Shown here piece after piece: positions 3,582 through 34,761 of a DNA stretch of 64,000 nucleotides; position 1 is the first letter of the stretch, and each line of letters starts with the position of its first letter. This DNA is from Neophaeotheca triangularis (Eukaryota). The DNA lies in contig BAAIJX010000001.1 of NCBI GenBank assembly GCA_054600435.1, positions 62,001 through 126,000 on the forward strand. The letters run 5' to 3'. Position numbers and translations under genes: made by a program. The notes under the pieces were generated by a model. The model saw only the letters and a list, made by a program, of their open reading frames with translations. It searched no databases and was not told where the DNA came from.

Positions 3582-5361
3582 TTACATGTCCATACTATCA
3601 CCACCGTTGGCGAAGTTGAAGTTTTGCTGCTCCTGCTGAGCACCGAAACCAAACTGTCCATTGGGTGCGCCTTGTGCTAGCTGATCCACGTCTTCACCGC
3701 CCTCGTCGTCGCTGAAGTACTTCTCGATGATGTTGTATGCCTTCATGTAGATCTCCTCGTTGCTGTTGTTCTGGCAGTCGTGGATCTTGAGCATACCGCC
3801 GCACTCCTCGATGAACAAAGCGAAGCGGTTGACGGGCGGCTCACCACTGCCCTCGGCTGCCTCCTTGTCCATGTCGCCAACCTTCAGGATGTTCTCAAGG
3901 CCATCCAGGGCAACTTGGATGATCTTGTTGTCGGGGCACGAAAGGAGATCGCAAAGCGGGCGGATCGCGCTGTTCTGGACAAGGTAGCGGATCTGGTCTG
4001 GTTTTTGAAGCCCGCCGCTAGTCGCATTGGAGATGGCCCAGCAGGCTTCTTTCCTTGTCTTGAAGTCGCCGTTTGAGAGCAGCTGGATGAGAGGAGGAAT
4101 GATGTTGGCGTCGATGACGGCTTGAATCTGTGTTTGGTTGCCGGCAGTGATGTTGGAGATTGTCCAGCAAGCTTCTTTGCGGATGCCGTCCTTGGTGGAA
4201 CTGAGCAGAGACAACAGCGCAGGCAGAGCACCACAGTTGATGATGAGTTGGGTCTGTACATCGTCACCGGTGACAATGTTGCCGACGGAACGAAGAGCCG
4301 GGGTTTGCACCGATGTGGACGCGTGCATGAGGAGCTCTACCAGACGGCGAGGGATGTTGGCTTCGATGACGGCTTGGATCTTGTCGTTGGAGCCGTCGGA
4401 GAGGTAGGAGATAGCCCAGCATGCATCAATGAGGACTTCGTCGTCGAGGGAGTAGACCAGCTTGGCGAGGACCGGGAGCGCAGGCGCAATCTGTGTATCG
4501 TCAGTAGGAATTCCTCTAACCGTTGCCGCAAACACTAAAGAATTTAAGAGCTTACCGTGTTCCAGTCGGGTTGAGGAGTCTTGCCCCTGCAGAAGTTGCT
4601 CAAAGTCCAGGTCGCGTTCCTCAACATGCTGAGCTTGCGGCTGTCGCCAAGCAAGCTGACGAGAGGACCCAACGCACCGCAACCAAGCACAAAGTCCCTG
4701 CAGTTTGGGCTGTCACCAGCAATGTTGCCGAGAGCCCAAACAGCTTGCTCTCTGACATCTGGCTCTGGGCTGCGAAGAAGCTCGACGAAGATGGGCACGG
4801 CACCGGCCTCGATAACCACCTGTGTCTGCTGGGCGGAGCCAGAGGCGATGTTGGTGAGGGCCCAGGCAGCTTCGAACTGAACAAGGGTGTGAGGGGAGCG
4901 CAGGAACTCGACGAAGCGGCCAACGACGCCAGTCTCGATGACGCGCTCGATAGGCGGGTTGCGCTCCTTAGAGAGAAGCTTGCGGAACTTGGTGGTTGAG
5001 GCGATTTGATCTTCAATCTTGTCCGAGAAAACGCCTTGCACCATGATAGGGAGGTCCTCGTTGAGCTGGACATATTGTCAGCGACTGTGTGATAGCGGTG
5101 CATATTGCTGCATATCCATCTTACCTGGCTCTCCGTGTTCAAGCCTTCATCGTCGCTGTCAGGCGCAGCCCCAAGTGAAGCTCCAGGCGCACCATCACCA
5201 CGGTTGCCAATGCCACGCCTCTTCGCAAGGTTCTCTTCACGCTTCTGCTTGCGGATCTCGACCTGCTGCTCCTCGCGGCGACGGCGCAGCTCGTCAGGCT
5301 TGAAGGTGTTTTTCGCCTTGAATGTAGTGCGGCGGTGCTCGGGAATGTATCTGTCCGCCAT
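3582..5361 (-). CDS. SRP1: Importin subunit alpha (karyopherin alpha); introns 5124-5066 and 4555-4491
   Basis: IBB domain ([26 protein letters not shown]), ARM repeats ([39 protein letters not shown]); both introns GTAAG...CAG restore frame. Confidence 0.97.
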
Positions 5362-24832: not shown

Positions 24833-26770
24833 CTATCGCGGCTCATCGACAGGACTCTCAGAAAGCCGCTCGTCCAACAAAGCCGGATCTACCGGGTACG
24901 AACGAATCCCGTTCTGCGCAAACTCTTGCTCTTCTCCAATGGAAAGCTCCGACTCCTCCCACTCCATTCCTACCAAATCCAGAACGCCGTTTCTGTAACA
25001 ATCCACCTCCTCAACCTCCATCCATCCGCCCTTCTCTACAGCCACAATCATGCCATCCACGCAGAATTGCCGTTGCCGCTCGTCGTCCTGGTCTTCGGGT
25101 ATTTCGATTCGCAGGCCCCGAGCGGAGTGGTACCCGACACGCTTGTCCCGGTCATGCTGGCCACCATTGTAGGCGGCGTTGATGATGTTTTTGATCTCGT
25201 TGTCGTGCCGAATCCTGCTCGCTCTCTCTTCTCCTTCCCCTTCTCCTTCTACCTCTTTTTCTCCTTCTCCTTTCCGCTCTTCTCCTTGCTTCTCCTTGTT
25301 AGTTTCTTCACCCCCTCGTGGATACAGTTGCCCAAATTCGACTATGCCTATCCCGCCACTCCCGAACCGATGCATGGGTGACATCTCGAACCCTTCCTCT
25401 AAGAATGCACCGCAAGTTGCAAGCAAGAAGGTGTGTTCGGGTCTCAGAAGCTGTTTTTCTTCAGTGGCACCACCGTCTGACCATCCACTAGAGATCGGAA
25501 GATGTCGTGTCGAATCGAAAAGCGTCACATTGCCCTTGTACACGCGCGGCGCGATGACGGTATCTTCATTGCGCAGATATTCTTCCAGAGCTGAGCGAAA
25601 AGACCGAGATGTGGGAGCGCCGCTATTGGTGCTGGCCTCGTCGACTGTTACGGAGGCATGTAGAGCCCAGGAGGCTACAACGGCGCCGTGGATGGTGGGA
25701 ACGCCGTCGACTGCACTCTCTGCTTTATCACCCAAACGGGCTCTTTTGCGAATCTTGCGGAGAGATGCGCCATCTTTACCTCGATCCGTTATTAGGTGAG
25801 CTCCACGAGAGAAAGTTGCCTGGAAGTATGGCAGTGGCTCTGGCTTCCCAAGAAGGAGTGCGCGGAGGCCAAAAGTAGAATGCTGCGATATGCGGTTGCT
25901 TGTTAGAAAGTTGCTGTGTGCAAGGGCATTCTTATGTCCACATGGGAGAAGGCAGAGGACAGGTTTGACATAGCTAGAGGGAGGTGTTATTATCTCCTGC
26001 TCATGGGTTTTTGATAAGTTTTCCGCGGCAGTGAACGGCGACGTGGAGAGTAAGGCATTCAGCAGGTCAGTCAAGCCATTGTCGTCACTTAGGAGAACAA
26101 TAGTCTGAGCGATGCTTCGTTTTGCTCGAGGCAGTAGGGTTGATGTTACTAACTCAAGAATCGTGTCTCTAGAGGCAGCGTAGTGCAGACTATACTCTCT
26201 CCTCTGGGAAAGAGTAAAGTGATCGAGGAGAGGCCGTAAGAGATCGCACCAGGCATTGTTAGCCAAGTCCGTGCCTATGTTGGTCGAAACTACGATGTGA
26301 AGATTGGGTGTCCCGTCCGTAGGTGCGACGAAGAGGTGACTAGGTTCTTCCGGGCATAGAAAATCACTGACCAGGTCTTCAGGTGGTTTGAAAACCTCTA
26401 TAGTGCGTAAAGCCAGTGCTGGAGCATGGTTGCCCTTGTCCCTAGGCAGCGGATCGACGAAGATGAGATTGTAGGTACTCGAGGCTCGACCACCAACGGT
26501 ATGTATTCCTGCGATGTACCCAACGCCAATAACATTGGAATTCTGCGTACTAGCCGACACATTGTCTCCGGGTATTTCCCAACTCAAGCAATCGAATACT
26601 TGTCCGGTGTGGTGGTAATCGCGGCGTTCCAAGTGGTAGGATATGTCGGCATCCTCATGGTTGACTTGGCCTCGTGAGGAATCTCGTAGGGGCGACAACT
26701 CAATGTCAATTGGTGCGTTTTGATACCTACGCAAAATCTCAGCCTTGACTCCGGCATTACTGTCTCCCAT
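24833..26770 (-). CDS. Diacylglycerol/sphingosine kinase catalytic-domain-like protein with degenerate motifs
   Basis: Family-like segments QTIVLLS, LCLLP.G..NALAHS, HGAVVASW.LHAS, YNGGQH, FCVDG; start placed at MGDSN (26770) by inference. Confidence 0.75.
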   Translation of the reverse strand: MGDSNAGVKAEILRRYQNAPIDIELSPLRDSSRGQVNHEDADISYHLERRDYHHTGQVFDCLSWEIPGDNVSASTQNSNVIGVGYIAGIHTVGGRASSTYNLIFVDPLPRDKGNHAPALALRTIEVFKPPEDLVSDFLCPEEPSHLFVAPTDGTPNLHIVVSTNIGTDLANNAWCDLLRPLLDHFTLSQRREYSLHYAASRDTILELVTSTLLPRAKRSIAQTIVLLSDDNGLTDLLNALLSTSPFTAAENLSKTHEQEIITPPSSYVKPVLCLLPCGHKNALAHSNFLTSNRISQHSTFGLRALLLGKPEPLPYFQATFSRGAHLITDRGKDGASLRKIRKRARLGDKAESAVDGVPTIHGAVVASWALHASVTVDEASTNSGAPTSRSFRSALEEYLRNEDTVIAPRVYKGNVTLFDSTRHLPISSGWSDGGATEEKQLLRPEHTFLLATCGAFLEEGFEMSPMHRFGSGGIGIVEFGQLYPRGGEETNKEKQGEERKGEGEKEVEGEGEGEERASRIRHDNEIKNIINAAYNGGQHDRDKRVGYHSARGLRIEIPEDQDDERQRQFCVDGMIVAVEKGGWMEVEEVDCYRNGVLDLVGMEWEESELSIGEEQEFAQNGIRSYPVDPALLDERLSESPVDEPR

Positions 26771-27232
26771 TCTGACAGTCAATCTCCATGTACTTTGGGC
26801 AGATATCTTGGACTGTACTTCGCAGGCAGCCCGAGGTGAGTGAGCTGAGCGAACAGCGGAGACGCCAAGACGCAGTCCAAACTTCCACCGTATATATGCA
26901 TGAGTCGGATATATGTAATTGTCACCAATCAACAACATGGCTGGAATTAGACGTCGTCGTCAACAGTGCCCCCTGGATTTTGCAGACTACTGATCAAATT
27001 CTAGCTACAAGAGCTAAAGATCATATTTGCCTGTTTCGTGACCGCTTCCCAATACCTGTGGTCGTCAAATTGACCGACCGTGATAAGCTAGAGCAAGTAT
27101 GTCTGTTCAATCATTCACGTCCATCATTTATGGCTCGGGCACTGCCTCTCAATATCACCAGTACACCGCAAAACCTAGACTGCATTCGGCTCTGCTTCCC
27201 CGGTGTTTTCCTTGCTCATCACAACTCTGCAG

Positions 27233-28144: not shown

Positions 28145-29251
28145 TTACAACTTCTCTTTATCATCTTTCGATTTGACCCTGATCATTCCCTCTTGCATCA
28201 AGGTGGCAACATGTCTCCCCCTCGCATCCCACACCCTACTATGAAACATTCCCCTCCCACCAGCAGCCCTGGTCGTCCAGTCTTCCTTCACAAACCATTC
28301 TCTTCCCTTGTCGTCCTCCGCCTCATCACTCCCCACAAACATCTCCTCCAAAGGCACATGGAATACAACCGTATGCGCCAGACTGCCCATCTGCGAGTAG
28401 CTATCCCCGGCATTGAAATGATTCGCAACGATAAAAAGCGAATTGCGGTCGCTCGCATACAAATGGGCGCAAGCGTTGAGGTTCGCATCCTTCGGCATCT
28501 TCCCCAACGCCCGATAGTAAATCAACTGCCGCTTATCCAACGGATCCAAACCGCGATTAAAAGCCGTCATGTCAACCTTCCTGGCCTGCAAGCCGGGGAA
28601 TGGGTCATTATACCCCGTCTCCTTCCTCCTGCGCCAATACCAAGGGACATCCATCCCCGGCGCTTCCTCAAAATCCTCAGGTCTCTTGCCCGCGAGCACG
28701 GACTCGTAGGCCGAGGGGATGTCCACGGCGGCCTGTTTATCAAGTGGGCTGGTCTCAGCGGTTTTGAACGATGCCGTGCATGTGAAGCAGATCCCGCTGC
28801 CCTCTCTTTGCGTGACGTTGACGATGCGGATCGCGTAGCTGCGGCCGTTGCGCAGCGTGTGCACTTTGTAGATGAAGGGGACCGAAGGGAGGCCGCCTAG
28901 GAGGAAGAAGCCCGTGACGTTCTGTCATCACCAAGAGGTCAGATCACTCTCATCGCCCGTTTAGCACGGAGTGGTGGTGCTGGGAAAATGCTGCTCTCGT
29001 ACAAAGGGCTACGGTATATGGAAGTTGTATCTACGTACATGCACCACAAAGCCCTCGCCCACGGTCTGTGCCGCCGCCCATACTGCTTGCGCATACACAT
29101 GTCCGCCGTAAGCTCTCTTGACACCGCCGGGGGCTTGCCCGCCCGGGGAGAAGGGAAGCGCCGTCGACCGGTATGTGACTTCGTTGATTTTCTCGAGTTC
29201 CATGAGATCCGCGAAGGGGAGGTATTGGTTGCCGTCTTCGGGGGGAGGCAT
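28145..29251 (-). CDS. Acyl-CoA thioesterase II (double hot-dog, TesB/Tes1 family); intron 29038-28922
   Basis: AYGGHVYAQA, HNVTGFF (formed across splice), LRNGRSY, HLYASDRNSLF, SLAHTVVFH, QEGMIR; C-terminal -EKL. Confidence 0.9.
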
Positions 29252-29791
29252 TGTGATGGTAGTGCGGGCACTGATACAGGGATGTGTTGGGATGGTGGTG
29301 ATGGTGGTGGTGGTTGTGGGTTGGGTCTCCGCGAGAGCATGGCAGAGACGGAAGTTAGACTACATGTTCGGTACTTGGGTTTTGTTATGGGAAAGTATGT
29401 TGCTGCGATTAGGTGAGGTTGGCATGTAGTCTACCTCGGTACAAGTGGTGGCCCACCTTGGAGTGGGGTTGTAGCGATATCCCCAGCTTCATGCCTTGAG
29501 AGACTGAATTAATCAAGTGGGATAAAAATGAGATCGTTTCCGGTTGCTTAGATGGCGAATCTTTGATAGGTTTACATACAGGCTTTGAAGGCCATCGTGT
29601 TGTAATCGCGAAAGCGTGGGTATTCTAAGAGTACATCAGCTGCCTCCCCCGATCAATCACGCCTTCTCGAAAGCGTGATGCGTGCCCAGCACGAGAACAG
29701 CGCCCCCAATCAACGCCCTAGTAGCGTCTACGAGATGAAAAGGCGCCATGCTACAATGCTGTAATTTCAGTGCCCTTGCTAGCCGAAATCC

Positions 29792-32700
29792 TCAATATTT
29801 GAACCCGATTCGATCAAGATACGCCATGAACTCCCGATCAAGCTCCTTCTGCATCTCAGCCAAGCGCTTGCGCTCCTCGGGCATGAAGCTCTGCACCAGC
29901 GGATGATCCATAGGCAGCTCCCGCATTTGGCTTTTGTCGTAAATAATCGTTAGCATGTCTTTGACGCCGTTCTTGTCCTCATCGTCGAACCAGTTGCGCA
30001 GCGCGACGGGGTCCCATGTGTCTTCTTCCGGTTGCTGGGGGGCGTCGTTGGCAGAAGATTCGCTGGGTTCGGCTGAGGTAGAGGTCGACACGGTGGAGGA
30101 CGTTGAGAGGCCGCGGGTCGGCGACGAAGCTTGAGGCTTGGGTGTGTCGTTGTCTTGGGTAGGCGGGGTTTCCTTAAAGGGTGTTTCCGGGGTGAGCAGA
30201 ACACGATTGTCGTTTTGGCTGTCTGCTACTTGGGGAGGTGCTCCTCCGTAGGGCTCTTTGGGTGGCGTGTCGAGGAAACTCGGGCTGGAAGCCTCGCTGG
30301 CACGGTCACGGCGCTCCTCTTCGTCGTCGTCGTTGGGGGACTGACCCTTTGCTGGTGTGGGTATATGTATATTCTCCGTGGCGTGCATGAAAGTCCCGGA
30401 CGTCATTTCGACCGGACTTTCGGATATCTCGTCGTCGTTCTCATCGTGCAGGTTGCGCGCTGCGCTTGAATCCTGATCTGTACTGTTGTTCCTGACGGCT
30501 TGCTGCGCGCTTTCGGATCGAGCTGGCACATTTTCGTCGGGTCCGTTGCCGGCCGGCGGCACCTTATAGCCCGACGACATCTCGTACGAAAGGTCGCCTG
30601 CAGGCAGCTCGGCCATGAAATCTGGAGGGTTATGGAGGTCCTTAGTAGACGAAGAGCTTGGACCTGGCGGCGATTTTTGCAGCTTGCCCCTCACGGAAGC
30701 AGGAGCCTGTGTAAGACTCTGTTTGCTCTCGCTGCGCTGTGCGCTCCTGTGCTGGTCTACCGGGGAAGTATCACCACTCCGCATTGGGGAGCCGCGAGGA
30801 GACTCTCGCGACGCTTCGGAGCTGGCTTTCTCAACTTCGCTTTCGGCGGGAACATCTTCTTTTGACTTCTTGTCCTTCTTCTTGCTTTTGAACAAGCCGG
30901 AAAGCATGCCCTGCTTCTTTTCCTTCTTCGCCTTTGCCTCTTTGCTCTTCTTTTCCTCGGGCGGCGAAGCTATCTTTACCAAGCTCTCCATACTGCTGTT
31001 GCGAGCACTATCTTGGGACGAAGGTTTGCTGTTACCGGACTCGTCGCGCAGTAGCCCAGGAGTAAGAGTGATTTTCCGAGTCTCGATGCTGTCATCCTTG
31101 AGGAAAGAATCGGTGTTGCGTGGCGTGCCTTTCCGAGACTTAAGTGGTGCTGCTTCTGCAAGGTTCGTTAGTCGCGGCTCTGGAAGAAGTGACAGAATAA
31201 TCAACCTACCAGTTCTGTCCACAAGCTTAGGGCTCAATTGCGGGTCTTCGGTCACAGAAGGCGTGGCACCGAGGATACTGCTAGTCGCGGAATTCGTCGA
31301 ATCCACAGATGCTCGCGCCGGATTGACAGTGGGCTCTGGCTCAACAGGAGCTTGCTCAGCGGCCTGTTGATTATCCAGATTTTGCTGTTGGTGGTGCTGC
31401 TGGTCGCTTTGTTGAACCTCCTGCTGCGTGGCAACACCGTTTTGAGGCTCAGCTTCACCCTGCTCTTCGTCGTCTGAATAGTCGTAGTCTGATGCCTCAA
31501 CGTAGGTCGGCGCGGCGAATTGGACCGTCTTTGCGTTTCTTCTACGCATGGCTTTCCTAAGTGGGTTCTTGGACTTCTCGGGATTGTCGCCCAACATGGT
31601 AGCGGATAGCTGTTGATCGGGTCAGTCGCTGCATAAAAGAAAACCTGGAGTTCACCACTTACGTCAATGTTGCGGTGCTTGTTAAGCCTTGCCAGTCGTT
31701 CGGTGGGTGTCTCGATATGCTCAGCGGGCAGGTATCCTGCGTTCAATTAGCCCGAGAACCATGTTCTCCCAGTCGCGGAAGCACACACCTATACTGCTGT
31801 CCTTGACGATCCTGACGAGCCACCAATAACTATTGCTGTCGTCGAGCAATACCATGGTATCACCCTTAGTGGCATTGGCTTGCCCTTCGACCGTGGCGAC
31901 AAACGTATGCAACGCATACACAAATTCGAAATCGATATCTTCTGCTTCACGTAAGCTCTCAGCACCCCAGCCGCTTGCAATGTACGAAGGGGACAGGTCA
32001 TTAAAGAAAGTGTCTGCAGCATCATCCTCTGAGCCAGTATCCGAGTCCGAGTCCGGAAGATCCTCCTAGGAATCCTCTGTATCAGCCGGAGAAGGTGGTA
32101 TGTCCAGAAGAGGGTCGTCCCGTGGGAGTAGCACTTCGTTGAGGTCTATGCTTCTCATGCTGCTGTTGCTCGGACAGGGCCGCAGGCCGATTGTAGTCAT
32201 AGCTGGCGAGCAGCGTGTCATGGACATCTTCCTCGCTGGTACCTCAGGCAACGGCTCATATGGCTCTTGTTCATCGTCAGTGTCCGAGTCGCTATGCTCG
32301 CCATAAGAAATCTCACTTGAGAGGCCGCTATCCATGCTAACACTCCCATTGGCTCCAACGCTTCCTAAAAGTTCCTGCTGCTGCTGCTGCTGTCCGTGCT
32401 CGATGCTTAGTTCCATTGGCTCCACGTCCGGTTCCTGTTGGGACCTTACCACTTGATGCTGACGTGCGGACGAGAATGAAAACAACCTGGCCATCTTTGC
32501 AACACCGAGCTTGGGGCTGGAGTGGACCGATTCCGAGCTGCCGCTTGCCATCGACTCACTCGAAACTTTTCGAAAAGCCAATGGCGAAGGAGAGAACCCC
32601 CCCTCGGCGCCCCCCACTCTCCGTAAAGGGAGATGCTTCGGTGTGTGCAAAAATGGCGAGGAATCAGGGGTCGTGCTTGCCGAACGGTTGAGCGTTCCGC

Positions 32701-33221
32701 TTAAGATTGGTGTTGACTCCGGTGTCAGACTTGAAGTCCTAGCCGGCCACGGCGAAGTACCGCGTTGTTGTGCTGGTGCTGGTGAGGTTGAAGAAGGCAT
32801 CGGGTACCCACCATCGTCTATGCTTGGCGAACTCGAAATTCTGTCCGTCATGTCGTCGGCTTCCTCGTCGTCGCTGTCGTCTTCTCCATTGTCTCGACCT
32901 TCCTGTTGTGAGACCCCCGTGGAGTCGCTACTTTGGTTAAGCTCGTCAGTCGGCTCGCTGTTGCCGTTCCACGCTTCTGCCAGATTCTGCTCCTCGGAAT
33001 GTCGCTCGCGTAGGACATGCTCGACTTCGGCAGCTTGGTGAGGACCAAGACCACCATCATTGTGGGGGTGCGCATGATGTTTGCTGTGATCTGCTGCAGA
33101 GGGCGCATCTTGATCCTGCAGGTCGATTGTGTCTGGAACGACTGTCAATATCCATGACTCTTTGCATTCTGCCGATTTCGCGGGCTCACATACCGGCTCT
33201 CACAATTTTCGGTCTTGCCAT
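29792..33221 (-). CDS. tea4: SH3-domain cell-polarity protein Tea4/TeaC/Bud14; introns 33193-33133, 32811-31942 (long, optional), 31788-31737, 31662-31610, 31209-31156
   Basis: MARPKIVRADTIDLQD N-terminus; SH3 FVYALHTFVATVEGQANATKGD...SYWWLVR...GYLPAEHIETP; ERLARLNKHRN; RVxF-type PP1 motif KTVQF. Confidence 0.9.
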
Positions 33222-34761
33222 AATCCCAGCTTCCACCGCGCAGTCCCTGGCCAACAAGCCAGGACTGCAAGATTGCGCCTACGAAATCTTCTCCGGTCGT
33301 CCCTCGCCCTCGCTGTCGCGCGCTGGTGTTTGTAGTCGAGTGCGTTCGCTATGGCGATTACCGGAAGCGATAGCGGTGCAGCAGTGCTGGGGCTGAGGTG
33401 AGTTTGGACAGTGGGCGAGTGAAGGTCGGGAGGCCGGTCGATAACGCGGGACTTTCGCGTTGGTCTTAGCAGAATGTACGCGTAGTTCAGGCAACAGTCG
33501 AGGAGCGAGTAGACGCCAGCGCCGGTATGGGATACAGCGGGTAGGAAATGAGAGGTGCTGGAAGTTAATAGCGAGATGAAGTAATGTGAAGTATGAACTA
33601 TGGTAGAGTCCCATTCCTGACGTTCCTGCCCCTGCCGCAGTGCTATCTAGGAAATAAAGTTGGCTGGCGTCGGCGTCGGCACTCCGGGAGGGGCCGCTGA
33701 GATCGCCCACATCACCCTAGCCATTCTGGGTGGCTGCACCTCAACTAGAACGTCACGTGCATGTTGAGATATATTCGGTGTCAAGATTGATGAACTGCAG
33801 CGATTGTTGAGTCGTGGAAAGACGGTGCTTGGTGGGAATCCGCAATGGCTACGAAGTCTCTGAGCTAAGAACACTTCATGTAGCTACGAAAGCTCTGTCT
33901 ATCGAGGCAGTTCCTAGTTTCACTGAAACTCGCCACTGCAATACATCTTGTTGGTTACACATGGCCCCCTCCATCTCAAAGGGGCGACCATCTAACAGCT
34001 CTCCAACTTGCGACTCACACACCCGATTCACACCCCCGATGGCGGGCGTTCAGAACTCCTTAGACCTGTCCAGGAGACAACGTTGCGATGCCTCCCCCGA
34101 AAGCCTGAAAGTCGCCCTGGTATTGTTCGTGCAGGCACGAGTCTGGACGCTGATGTCTCTAATCATTGCCGAGTACGTTCTGCTTGCGCATAGAGGCTCC
34201 TTATCATTCCTCTCTTCCTAGCAACACACTGCAGGTTGAGTTCATGTTGAATATCTACCGGCATTGCACTTGCAACGGGCGCGACGCATTCCAATGCGGT
34301 TTTACGCAGCTCAGCAGGTACCGCTCGTCATCGATGCCTAAGTCTCCGGGCTGAAAACTGTCTTTGCTATCGTCATTGCTGCTTTCGGTGGAGCGGCGGT
34401 AGTGGGCTTTGATTGGCGTAAGTGGGCGATGGCAAGAAGGCTACGGCTAATGCGGCGTGAAGATCGACGAGAGAGCCTTGCGGCCCCTGATGTTTCGACG
34501 CCGGTACTCGGCCATGGCGAAATATTGTCCCATTGGCTAGTGCGAATAATGGATGGAGCGTCTGCAACGTTAGGTTGCGACATCCGTCTACCCAGAGCAA
34601 GCGGGCGATATGGTGGCTGTTGAAGGCGACGAGGGCAACCATGGTCTCATCTTCTTCTGGTTTGGAGAAACGGTCAAAAATATTGACGATCTACGTCTCT
34701 ACGAGCAAACAAATAAGATACCAACGCCTTCGCTAGTGTCGAAACATCCAGCACACCATCT

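Follow-up and report, generated by a model that had tools for sequence, protein, structure and literature searches.

A premature UAG retained at a conserved tryptophan codon of the tea4-type gene of Neophaeotheca triangularis

The 64,000-nt stretch of Neophaeotheca triangularis DNA analysed here (GCA_054600435.1, contig BAAIJX010000001.1, positions 62,001 to 126,000; hereafter the window) contains a gene of the tea4/Bud14/TeaC type that is interrupted by an in-frame TAG in its second exon (Table 1). We take the host to be a marine black yeast. The TAG is a retained premature stop in an otherwise intact tea4 gene under selection, and lies in a disordered region just before the part that encodes the SH3 domain and the protein phosphatase 1 (PP1)-docking motif. 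Because the stop has been kept while the sequence downstream is under protein-level selection, either it is bypassed or the gene gives two products; we consider it very probable that the stop is old, that the downstream protein is still made, and that the UAG is bypassed at least sometimes. As to the means, we tentatively place adenosine-to-inosine (A-to-I) editing of the UAG first, followed in order by splicing at the TAG, translational readthrough, and plain truncation.

Results

A stop in place of a conserved tryptophan codon

Read on the minus strand, 377 open codons run from 33199 to 32069, the TAG follows, and a further 114 open codons lead into the SH3 exon; the single TAG at 32068-32066 in an otherwise open frame, as described in the initial annotation, is confirmed in the letters. 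If the TAG is read through, the gene has five exons and 1069 codons, of which the internal stop is codon 365. Twelve proteins cover 96% of a 469-residue query spanning exon 2, namely the annotated N. triangularis protein (P0002) and 11 orthologues of 1072-1114 aa with 37-45% identity. At the TAG column Trp is present in ten of the 11 aligned orthologues and Tyr in one (P0025), with P0002 gapped; Trp is also found in all three proteins known at the level of open reading frames (ORFs) and in all six further ORFs. A metagenome scan recovered 61 loci, all of them distant relatives and none from the window's clade. Where the alignment spans the codon, TGG is present in 17 of 49 loci and a stop in none of the 49. 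The remaining 32 have another residue or a gap at the column; the region is acidic and of low complexity, which makes the alignment of distant sequences unreliable there. No stop occurs at the Trp site in any of the 48 metagenome loci that have the SH3 motif. The codon in orthologues, whose inspection had been proposed as a check, is thus nearly always one for Trp in the protein alignments where the window has TAG, and these indicate that the TAG is derived from an ancestral TGG. With respect to repeat-induced point mutation, a single lone change is seen and no cluster of changes. In one distant orthologue (L059 and L060, at ~3775-4005) the LLPVDDPLLD motif and the SH3 block are in different frames, reflecting an intron or a frameshift near the position of the window's stop.

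Single stops with at least 90 open codons on both sides number 24 in the window, both strands included, and nine of these are TAG. Reassignment of TAG to sense is not suggested, with six of 21 open frames of at least 300 codons terminating in TAG, and a tRNA scan found no tRNA genes in the window. Of the 24 single stops, the tea4 site and the plus-strand TAG at 28898-28900 were looked at; the latter, which splits a long ORF pair, was set aside, as it falls in the frame antisense to an acyl-CoA thioesterase gene on the minus strand and not in a gene of its own.

The stop in a second sample and its probable counterparts in relatives

A Logan contig of run X1 is identical to the window over 31700-33250 at a word depth of ~130; X1 is the probable source run, independent as an assembly and not as a sample. 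Run X2, which has the same organism label and comes from another sample, gives one contig over these 1551 nt that is ~1.1% diverged from the window; its 17 substitutions and one 3-nt deletion all leave 32066-32068 unchanged. The deletion is in a CAG run, where one CAG unit of a glutamine run is missing (window 32375). We note that at 33207 (exon 1, codon 5) X2 has AAC in place of AAA, a Lys to Asn difference, and that most orthologues have Asn there (MTRPNIV).

One relative has an ORF with the same end point. P0122, recovered in a search of shorter proteins, is a 258-aa ORF on a Logan contig of 28,203 nt that is 75% identical (196/261) to the window's protein, begins at the first ATG, and terminates in ...LLPRDDPLLDTPPSPAETDDS (...PPSPAETDDS), the last residue corresponding to that before the window's TAG. 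P0242, on a 4,577-nt contig, is identical to P0122 in the common part and has the same end; the two possibly represent one strain and are counted as one lineage. The C-terminal exon is represented by P0243 and P0344, on contigs of 28,203 and 4,577 nt, which are 70% identical (414/589) to the window and intact, with the same C-terminus; from the equal contig sizes, the N- and C-terminal ORFs of the relative are apparently on the same contig. These relatives are known from ORF translations, from which a stop codon at this position is deduced and not read in DNA. In the window, which is a sister lineage of P0122, the TAG is plainly present and there is no intron.

More distant ORFs, among 28 matches obtained from cluster representatives, also terminate in this region. 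P0353 (431 aa, ENA contig of 24,935 nt, ~40% identical) ends in ...DPLLDRSPSPTDSTDS, P0347 in ...TPPSPTDSTNS, P0348 in ...DSSSDSVSS, and P0351 in ...ATFEDQDDD, where the column is less certain; each of these ends may be a stop at the column or an intron read through. Among 125 proteins bearing the LLPxxDPLL motif, only these four together with P0122 and P0242 end within 25 residues past the motif, 99 have a Trp within 26 residues, and 20 have neither a Trp nor an end, including the read-through translation of the window. The four distant proteins are 33-43% identical to one another, and each is equally close to W-bearing ORFs. P0335 (579 aa, ENA) comes from a contig equal in length to that of P0353 (24,935 nt); this C-terminal ORF is intact and carries the family motifs. 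It is placed apart from the window's clade in the full tree, made by a quick method, and is basal in the C-terminal tree. A single clade of the three stop-bearing rows is not rejected by the approximately unbiased test (p = 0.275), and the trees appear compatible with either a single origin or several origins of the stop. Other ORF-level relatives (P0346, P0350/P0359 and P0352) end elsewhere in the disordered region, probably at lineage-specific introns; P0352 reads SWES and ends 15 residues later.

Constraint on both sides of the stop

The stretch around the TAG is coding sequence, and the parts downstream of the stop are under protein-level constraint. At downstream columns at least 90% conserved among the 11 distant orthologues, the window and the relative agree at 164 of 179 positions, compared with 262 of 399 elsewhere (Fisher p = 3e-12); the same test upstream of the stop gives 54/66 and 189/274 (p = 0.048). 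The 705 codons downstream of the TAG contain no further stop or frameshift. No in-frame ATG is present between the stop and the SGWG..DIDFEF block, and a separate downstream product could therefore not hold the whole SH3 domain.

Within exon 2, X1 and X2 differ at 12 positions, seven of them synonymous and five non-synonymous (binomial p of 0.014 or 0.039 against 25% or 30% synonymous expected); ten are upstream of the stop, and the two downstream are both synonymous. For X9, which is divergent and carries the same organism label, all nine of the differences listed in the SH3 exon are synonymous. The aligned X9 segments are 31787-31960 and 32802-32858 (10 of 30 bins covered), with the TAG codon outside them. 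The X9 label apparently spans more than one species-level lineage, as 17 of 174 bases differ in the most conserved exon (31787-31960).

A predicted hairpin and possible editing of the UAG

The A of the UAG (32067) is predicted to lie in a 6-nt loop on an uninterrupted 8-bp stem (Table 1). Segments of 41 to 201 nt all show this hairpin in their minimum-free-energy structure, the A being unpaired with a probability of 0.99; folded in isolation, the hairpin has an energy of -7.8 kcal/mol. Among 600 random control TAGs of the window, 152 are in a hairpin loop; requiring a loop of at most 8 nt leaves ten with a stem of 6 bp or more and none with one of 8 bp or more. At TGG-bearing orthologous loci the corresponding base is in a hairpin loop in one of eight distinct cases, on a 4-bp stem. 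The editing context proposed in the initial annotation, with U at -1 and purines downstream of the A, is as seen in UAG GAG GAU.

Fungal A-to-I editing by Tad2/Tad3 is described as preferring hairpin loops and U at -1, such that UAG is often edited (PMC11156358). Edited premature TAGs mostly arise from TGG and are usually conserved, and they are mostly N-terminal or within or before conserved domains; 50 of 71 genes with edited premature stops encode disordered regions (PMC10776026). By analogy, the A of the tea4 UAG, held in the 6-nt loop with U at -1 and purines downstream, would be deaminated to inosine, and the resulting UIG would be decoded as Trp, restoring the ancestral residue and the 1069-residue protein. 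Such restorative editing would be akin to that by the Tad2/Tad3 deaminases of Sordariomycetes. An mRNA on which the stop is not bypassed would either be degraded or yield an N-terminal fragment of 364 residues, and full-length Tea4 could then depend on growth or developmental state. The kept stop, the constraint on both sides of it and the exposure of the A in a loop favour such recoding indirectly. We hold this reading as a whole, editing to Trp included, only tentatively, as the first among several candidates.

Several points weigh against it. The hairpin is a single-sequence prediction, and as a whole the 81-nt segment folds with unremarkable energy (z = 0.79, not significant). The constraint signal from the X1-X2 comparison comes mostly from the upstream side of the stop, where 10 of the 12 exon-2 differences lie. 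The relative's ORF ends in Ser, and a phase-2 intron (TC|GTRAGT) read through would in principle look alike. A metatranscriptome, RNA run X7, gave only two short stretches of less than 90% identity, at 32852-32895. Sordariomycetes and Pyronema are the groups in which A-to-I mRNA editing is described, and it is given as not found in Aspergillus nidulans or Botrytis cinerea (PMC11156358). The Ame1-Tad3 interaction that enables it is presented as a Sordariomycete innovation, the editing having an independent origin in Pyronema (PMC11087585). No report of A-to-I mRNA editing in Dothideomycetes was found in the titles and abstracts listed by literature searches. We know of no sexual stage for Neophaeotheca triangularis.

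Splicing at the TAG

The public annotation avoids the stop by a 69-nt intron that ends at the TAG itself, and P0002 lacks exactly these 23 codons (22 residues and the stop). A splicing explanation would hold that the G-to-A change made an AG, so that an in-frame donor, either GTGCTA (69 nt) or GTAAGG (384 nt), removes the stop; spliced mRNA would encode a full-length form short of 23 or 128 residues, and unspliced mRNA the truncated form. There is some sequence basis for this, in that 14 donors would join in frame to an acceptor at the TAG. A filter requiring G at +5, YAG and, 8-50 nt before the acceptor, a YTRAY branch site is passed by four candidate introns, which all end at the TAG and include the 384-nt GTAAGG intron. 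A pyrimidine-rich tract coding for PPSP and a branch-like CTGAT precede the AG, the latter by 16 nt, and since the PPSP tract is conserved, the same mutation would make a similar acceptor in other lineages.

The sequence to be removed evolves, however, as translated sequence: 19 of the 22 residues before the stop are identical in the relative, compared with seven of 18 for true intron 4 read through (p = 0.0027), and the peptide includes the family motif VLLPxDDPLLDxPPSP. For this reason the 69-nt intron is probably a gene predictor's device and translation most likely reaches the stop. Moreover, GTGCTA has neither the G at +5 nor the T at +6 common to all four real introns, 384 nt is atypical beside real introns of 52-61 nt, and a splice site within the loop of a stable hairpin is unexpected. 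Splicing at the TAG is thus unlikely as the main explanation, and the 69-nt intron could be a minor splice form. Comparable stops may lie hidden in other annotated fungal proteomes, likewise behind an intron with a poor donor.

Readthrough and truncation

Translational readthrough by a near-cognate tRNA would yield mostly the 364-residue fragment and a small full-length fraction with Gln, Tyr or Lys at the site. It accounts for constraint both downstream of the stop and up to it without any new machinery, and the Tyr of P0025 indicates that the site tolerates residues other than Trp. We nonetheless regard it as quite unlikely, because the context UAG GAG GAU is unlike leaky stop contexts, in which the stop is followed by CUAG or CARYYA, and because the basal rate is low. 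The hairpin encloses the stop and is already unwound when the ribosome arrives, so it would be of no help. Nor does readthrough account for the keeping of an easily reverted stop, or for its position at a Trp codon.

Taken most simply, a stop codon means that there is no bypass, and that the gene makes the N-terminal fragment alone, or nothing through nonsense-mediated decay, with the downstream part decaying or separately expressed. Neophaeotheca triangularis presumably grows as yeast-like or meristematic cells, and a fungus without polarised tip growth might tolerate loss of full-length Tea4; that the X1-X2 constraint is mostly upstream of the stop also fits. It is difficult to reconcile with 705 intact downstream codons, with the relative's C-terminal ORF, intact at 70% identity and with substitutions that avoid family-conserved columns, and with SH3-exon changes in X2 and X9 that are all synonymous, and a separately expressed product could not include the whole SH3 domain, given the missing ATG. 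We consider this reading improbable.

The formerly proposed splicing of the 870-nt stretch, and possible error

The initial annotation had proposed that the stop lies within an 870-nt exitron, running from GTGGGT at 32811 to CAG at 31942, whose splicing would yield a short Tea4 with the SH3 domain beside the acidic N-terminus. Its coordinates and letters are correct (870 nt, 290 codons, joining as ...SIDD-E-DIDFEF), and the GT and AG exist and are in frame. Exon 2 holds 296 such in-frame GT..AG pairs, at least 45 nt long, that span the TAG, and this one fails the filter for want of a YTRAY branch site 8-50 nt before its acceptor. The donor sits inside the invariant peptide SSSPSIDDGG, and the sequence to be removed is conserved coding sequence in all aligned orthologues and in the relative, with the blocks SSSPSIDDGGY, TPDSSPFLxTPxHLPL, VLLPxDDPLLDxPPSP, SWES and FIDSGWGGECLRE, the last directly N-terminal of the SH3 domain. 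Between 31960 and 32802 X9 has 766 letters to the window's 841, and is shorter by 75 nt, or 25 whole codons. An intron of this length would be 14 to 17 times the size of the gene's real introns (52-61 nt). On these grounds the exitron is rejected as very improbable. As to the accompanying argument, that one stop in 290 codons is unlike an intron, the openness exceeds chance solely because the stretch is coding sequence, and this GT..AG pair is not special.

An error in sequencing or assembly, raised earlier as an alternative together with a simple nonsense mutation, is practically excluded unless X1 and X2 have a systematic read error at this base in common, and so is a nonsense mutation confined to one strain, since X1 is identical at a depth of ~130, X2 has the same codon in its reads while differing at 17 other positions, and the relative's ORF terminates at the same codon.

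Gene structure and neighbouring genes

The coordinates of the gene and of the features discussed above are given in Table 1. P0002, of 1046 aa, has the source name hypothetical protein of Neophaeotheca triangularis, and in a protein search the source names of its relatives include 'Tip elongation aberrant protein Tea4' and 'protein phosphatase regulator'; the assignment as a Tea4 orthologue rests on these names, from a search in one direction. P0002 scores 23.2 bits against SH3_1 (PF00018), with a cut-off of 22.9, and P0003 and P0005 score 24.3 and 23.5, whereas the unspliced exon alone scores 20.6 bits and is under the cut-off. In the alignment, the SH3 part of the exon 2 remainder is identical to the orthologues. 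A putative PP1-docking motif of the RVxF type, as this docking motif is generally defined, is present 3' of the SH3 domain, RRRNAKTVQFAAPTY (K-T-V-Q-F docking-type), and its residues R26-V33 and F35 are invariant in five aligned C-terminal ORFs.

Just downstream of tea4 and on the same strand is an acyl-CoA thioesterase gene at 28148-28924 (-), with Pfam matches 4HBT_3C, Acyl_CoA_thio and 4HBT_3. Long open frames of 708 and 163 codons are found at 24836-26959 (-) and 28942-29430 (-), neither with a Pfam match at E <=0.001.

Table 1. Features of the tea4-type gene and candidate elements around its internal stop (window coordinates).
Feature	Coordinates	Strand	Description
tea4/Bud14/TeaC-type gene	29792..33221	-	ATG 33221-33219, TGA 29794-29792
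Five exons	33221-33194, 33132-31789, 31736-31663, 31609-31210, 31155-29792	-	With the 69-nt skip, translate exactly to P0002
Intron 1	33133..33193	-	61 nt, GTATGT..CAG
Intron 2	31737..31788	-	52 nt, GTGTGT..CAG, within SH3 domain
Intron 3	31610..31662	-	53 nt, GTAAGT..CAG
Intron 4	31156..31209	-	54 nt, GTAGGT..CAG, in frame, stop-free; neutral control
In-frame TAG	32066..32068	-	Replaces conserved Trp codon (S-W-E-S)
Predicted RNA hairpin	32056..32077	-	5' arm 32077-32070 GAGGAUUC, loop 32069-32064 CUAGGA, 3' arm 32063-32056 GGAUCUUC
Exon 2 remainder 3' of stop	31789..32065	-	Acidic linker, SGWG..LRE block, most of SH3 domain
69-nt 'intron' of public annotation	32066..32134	-	GTGCTA..CTGAT..TAG; removes VLLPRDDPLLDIPPSPADTEDS and the stop
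Alternative candidate in-frame intron	32066..32449	-	384 nt, GTAAGG..CTGAT..TAG; best of 14 in-frame donors
Formerly proposed 'exitron'	31942..32811	-	Conserved coding sequence of exon 2, disordered with conserved blocks

Discussion

A UAG retained at an ancestral Trp codon, in a gene selected on both sides of it, provides a concrete site at which bypass can be studied in a culturable Dothideomycete. Pom1, the PP1 Dis2 and For3 are recruited by the landmarks Tea1 and Tea4 (PMC6080602), and whichever mechanism applies, the amount of full-length Tea4, a polarity landmark, would be conditional, which is of interest in fungi that switch growth form. A broader interpretation, which we regard as doubtful, is that Dothideomycetes recode UAG to Trp site-specifically in mRNA, for example by A-to-I editing independent of that in Sordariomycetes; tea4 would then be switched between truncated and full-length products, and the same Trp codon would have been flipped to a stop in several lineages, with the hairpin making the flip nearly harmless or useful. 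As P0002 illustrates, gene predictors hide such stops behind invented introns, and similar cases may be invisible in annotated fungal proteomes.

The window's protein shares with Tea4 of S. pombe, Bud14 of S. cerevisiae and TeaC of Aspergillus nidulans the SH3 domain, the K-T-V-Q-F docking-type motif and the orthologue names. It differs in the ~290-residue disordered stretch from the N-terminus to the SH3 domain, which is aligned among Dothideomycete-type orthologues only, and in the stop within that stretch, which is carried only by the window's clade and perhaps a few others.

Exitrons and new 3' splice sites are similar in having an internal in-frame coding stretch bounded by GT..AG, and a stop mutation that makes an AG. 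Here the donors are weak or distant, the candidate intron evolves as coding sequence, and the case is known from DNA. Programmed readthrough in fungi, as in the peroxisomal isoforms of glycolytic enzymes, likewise involves a stop followed by in-frame conserved coding sequence, but there it is a normal terminator with a short extension, whereas the tea4 stop is internal, at codon 365 of 1069, and in a context unlike the readthrough motifs.

The nearest counterparts are the premature stop codon (PSC) pseudogenes with restorative A-to-I editing in Fusarium graminearum and Neurospora, such as PUK1 and AMD1. The tea4 host differs in being a Dothideomycete without a sexual stage known to us, and the present case in being seen at the DNA level; tea4 is absent from the main text of PMC10776026, as far as that text was available. 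Like these pseudogenes, tea4 has a TAG derived from TGG in a disordered region before a domain, and it shares with them the U at -1, the A in a predicted loop, and an otherwise intact gene, while its stop appears to be kept among relatives (PMC10776026, PMC11156358, PMC4817773, as far as their texts were available).

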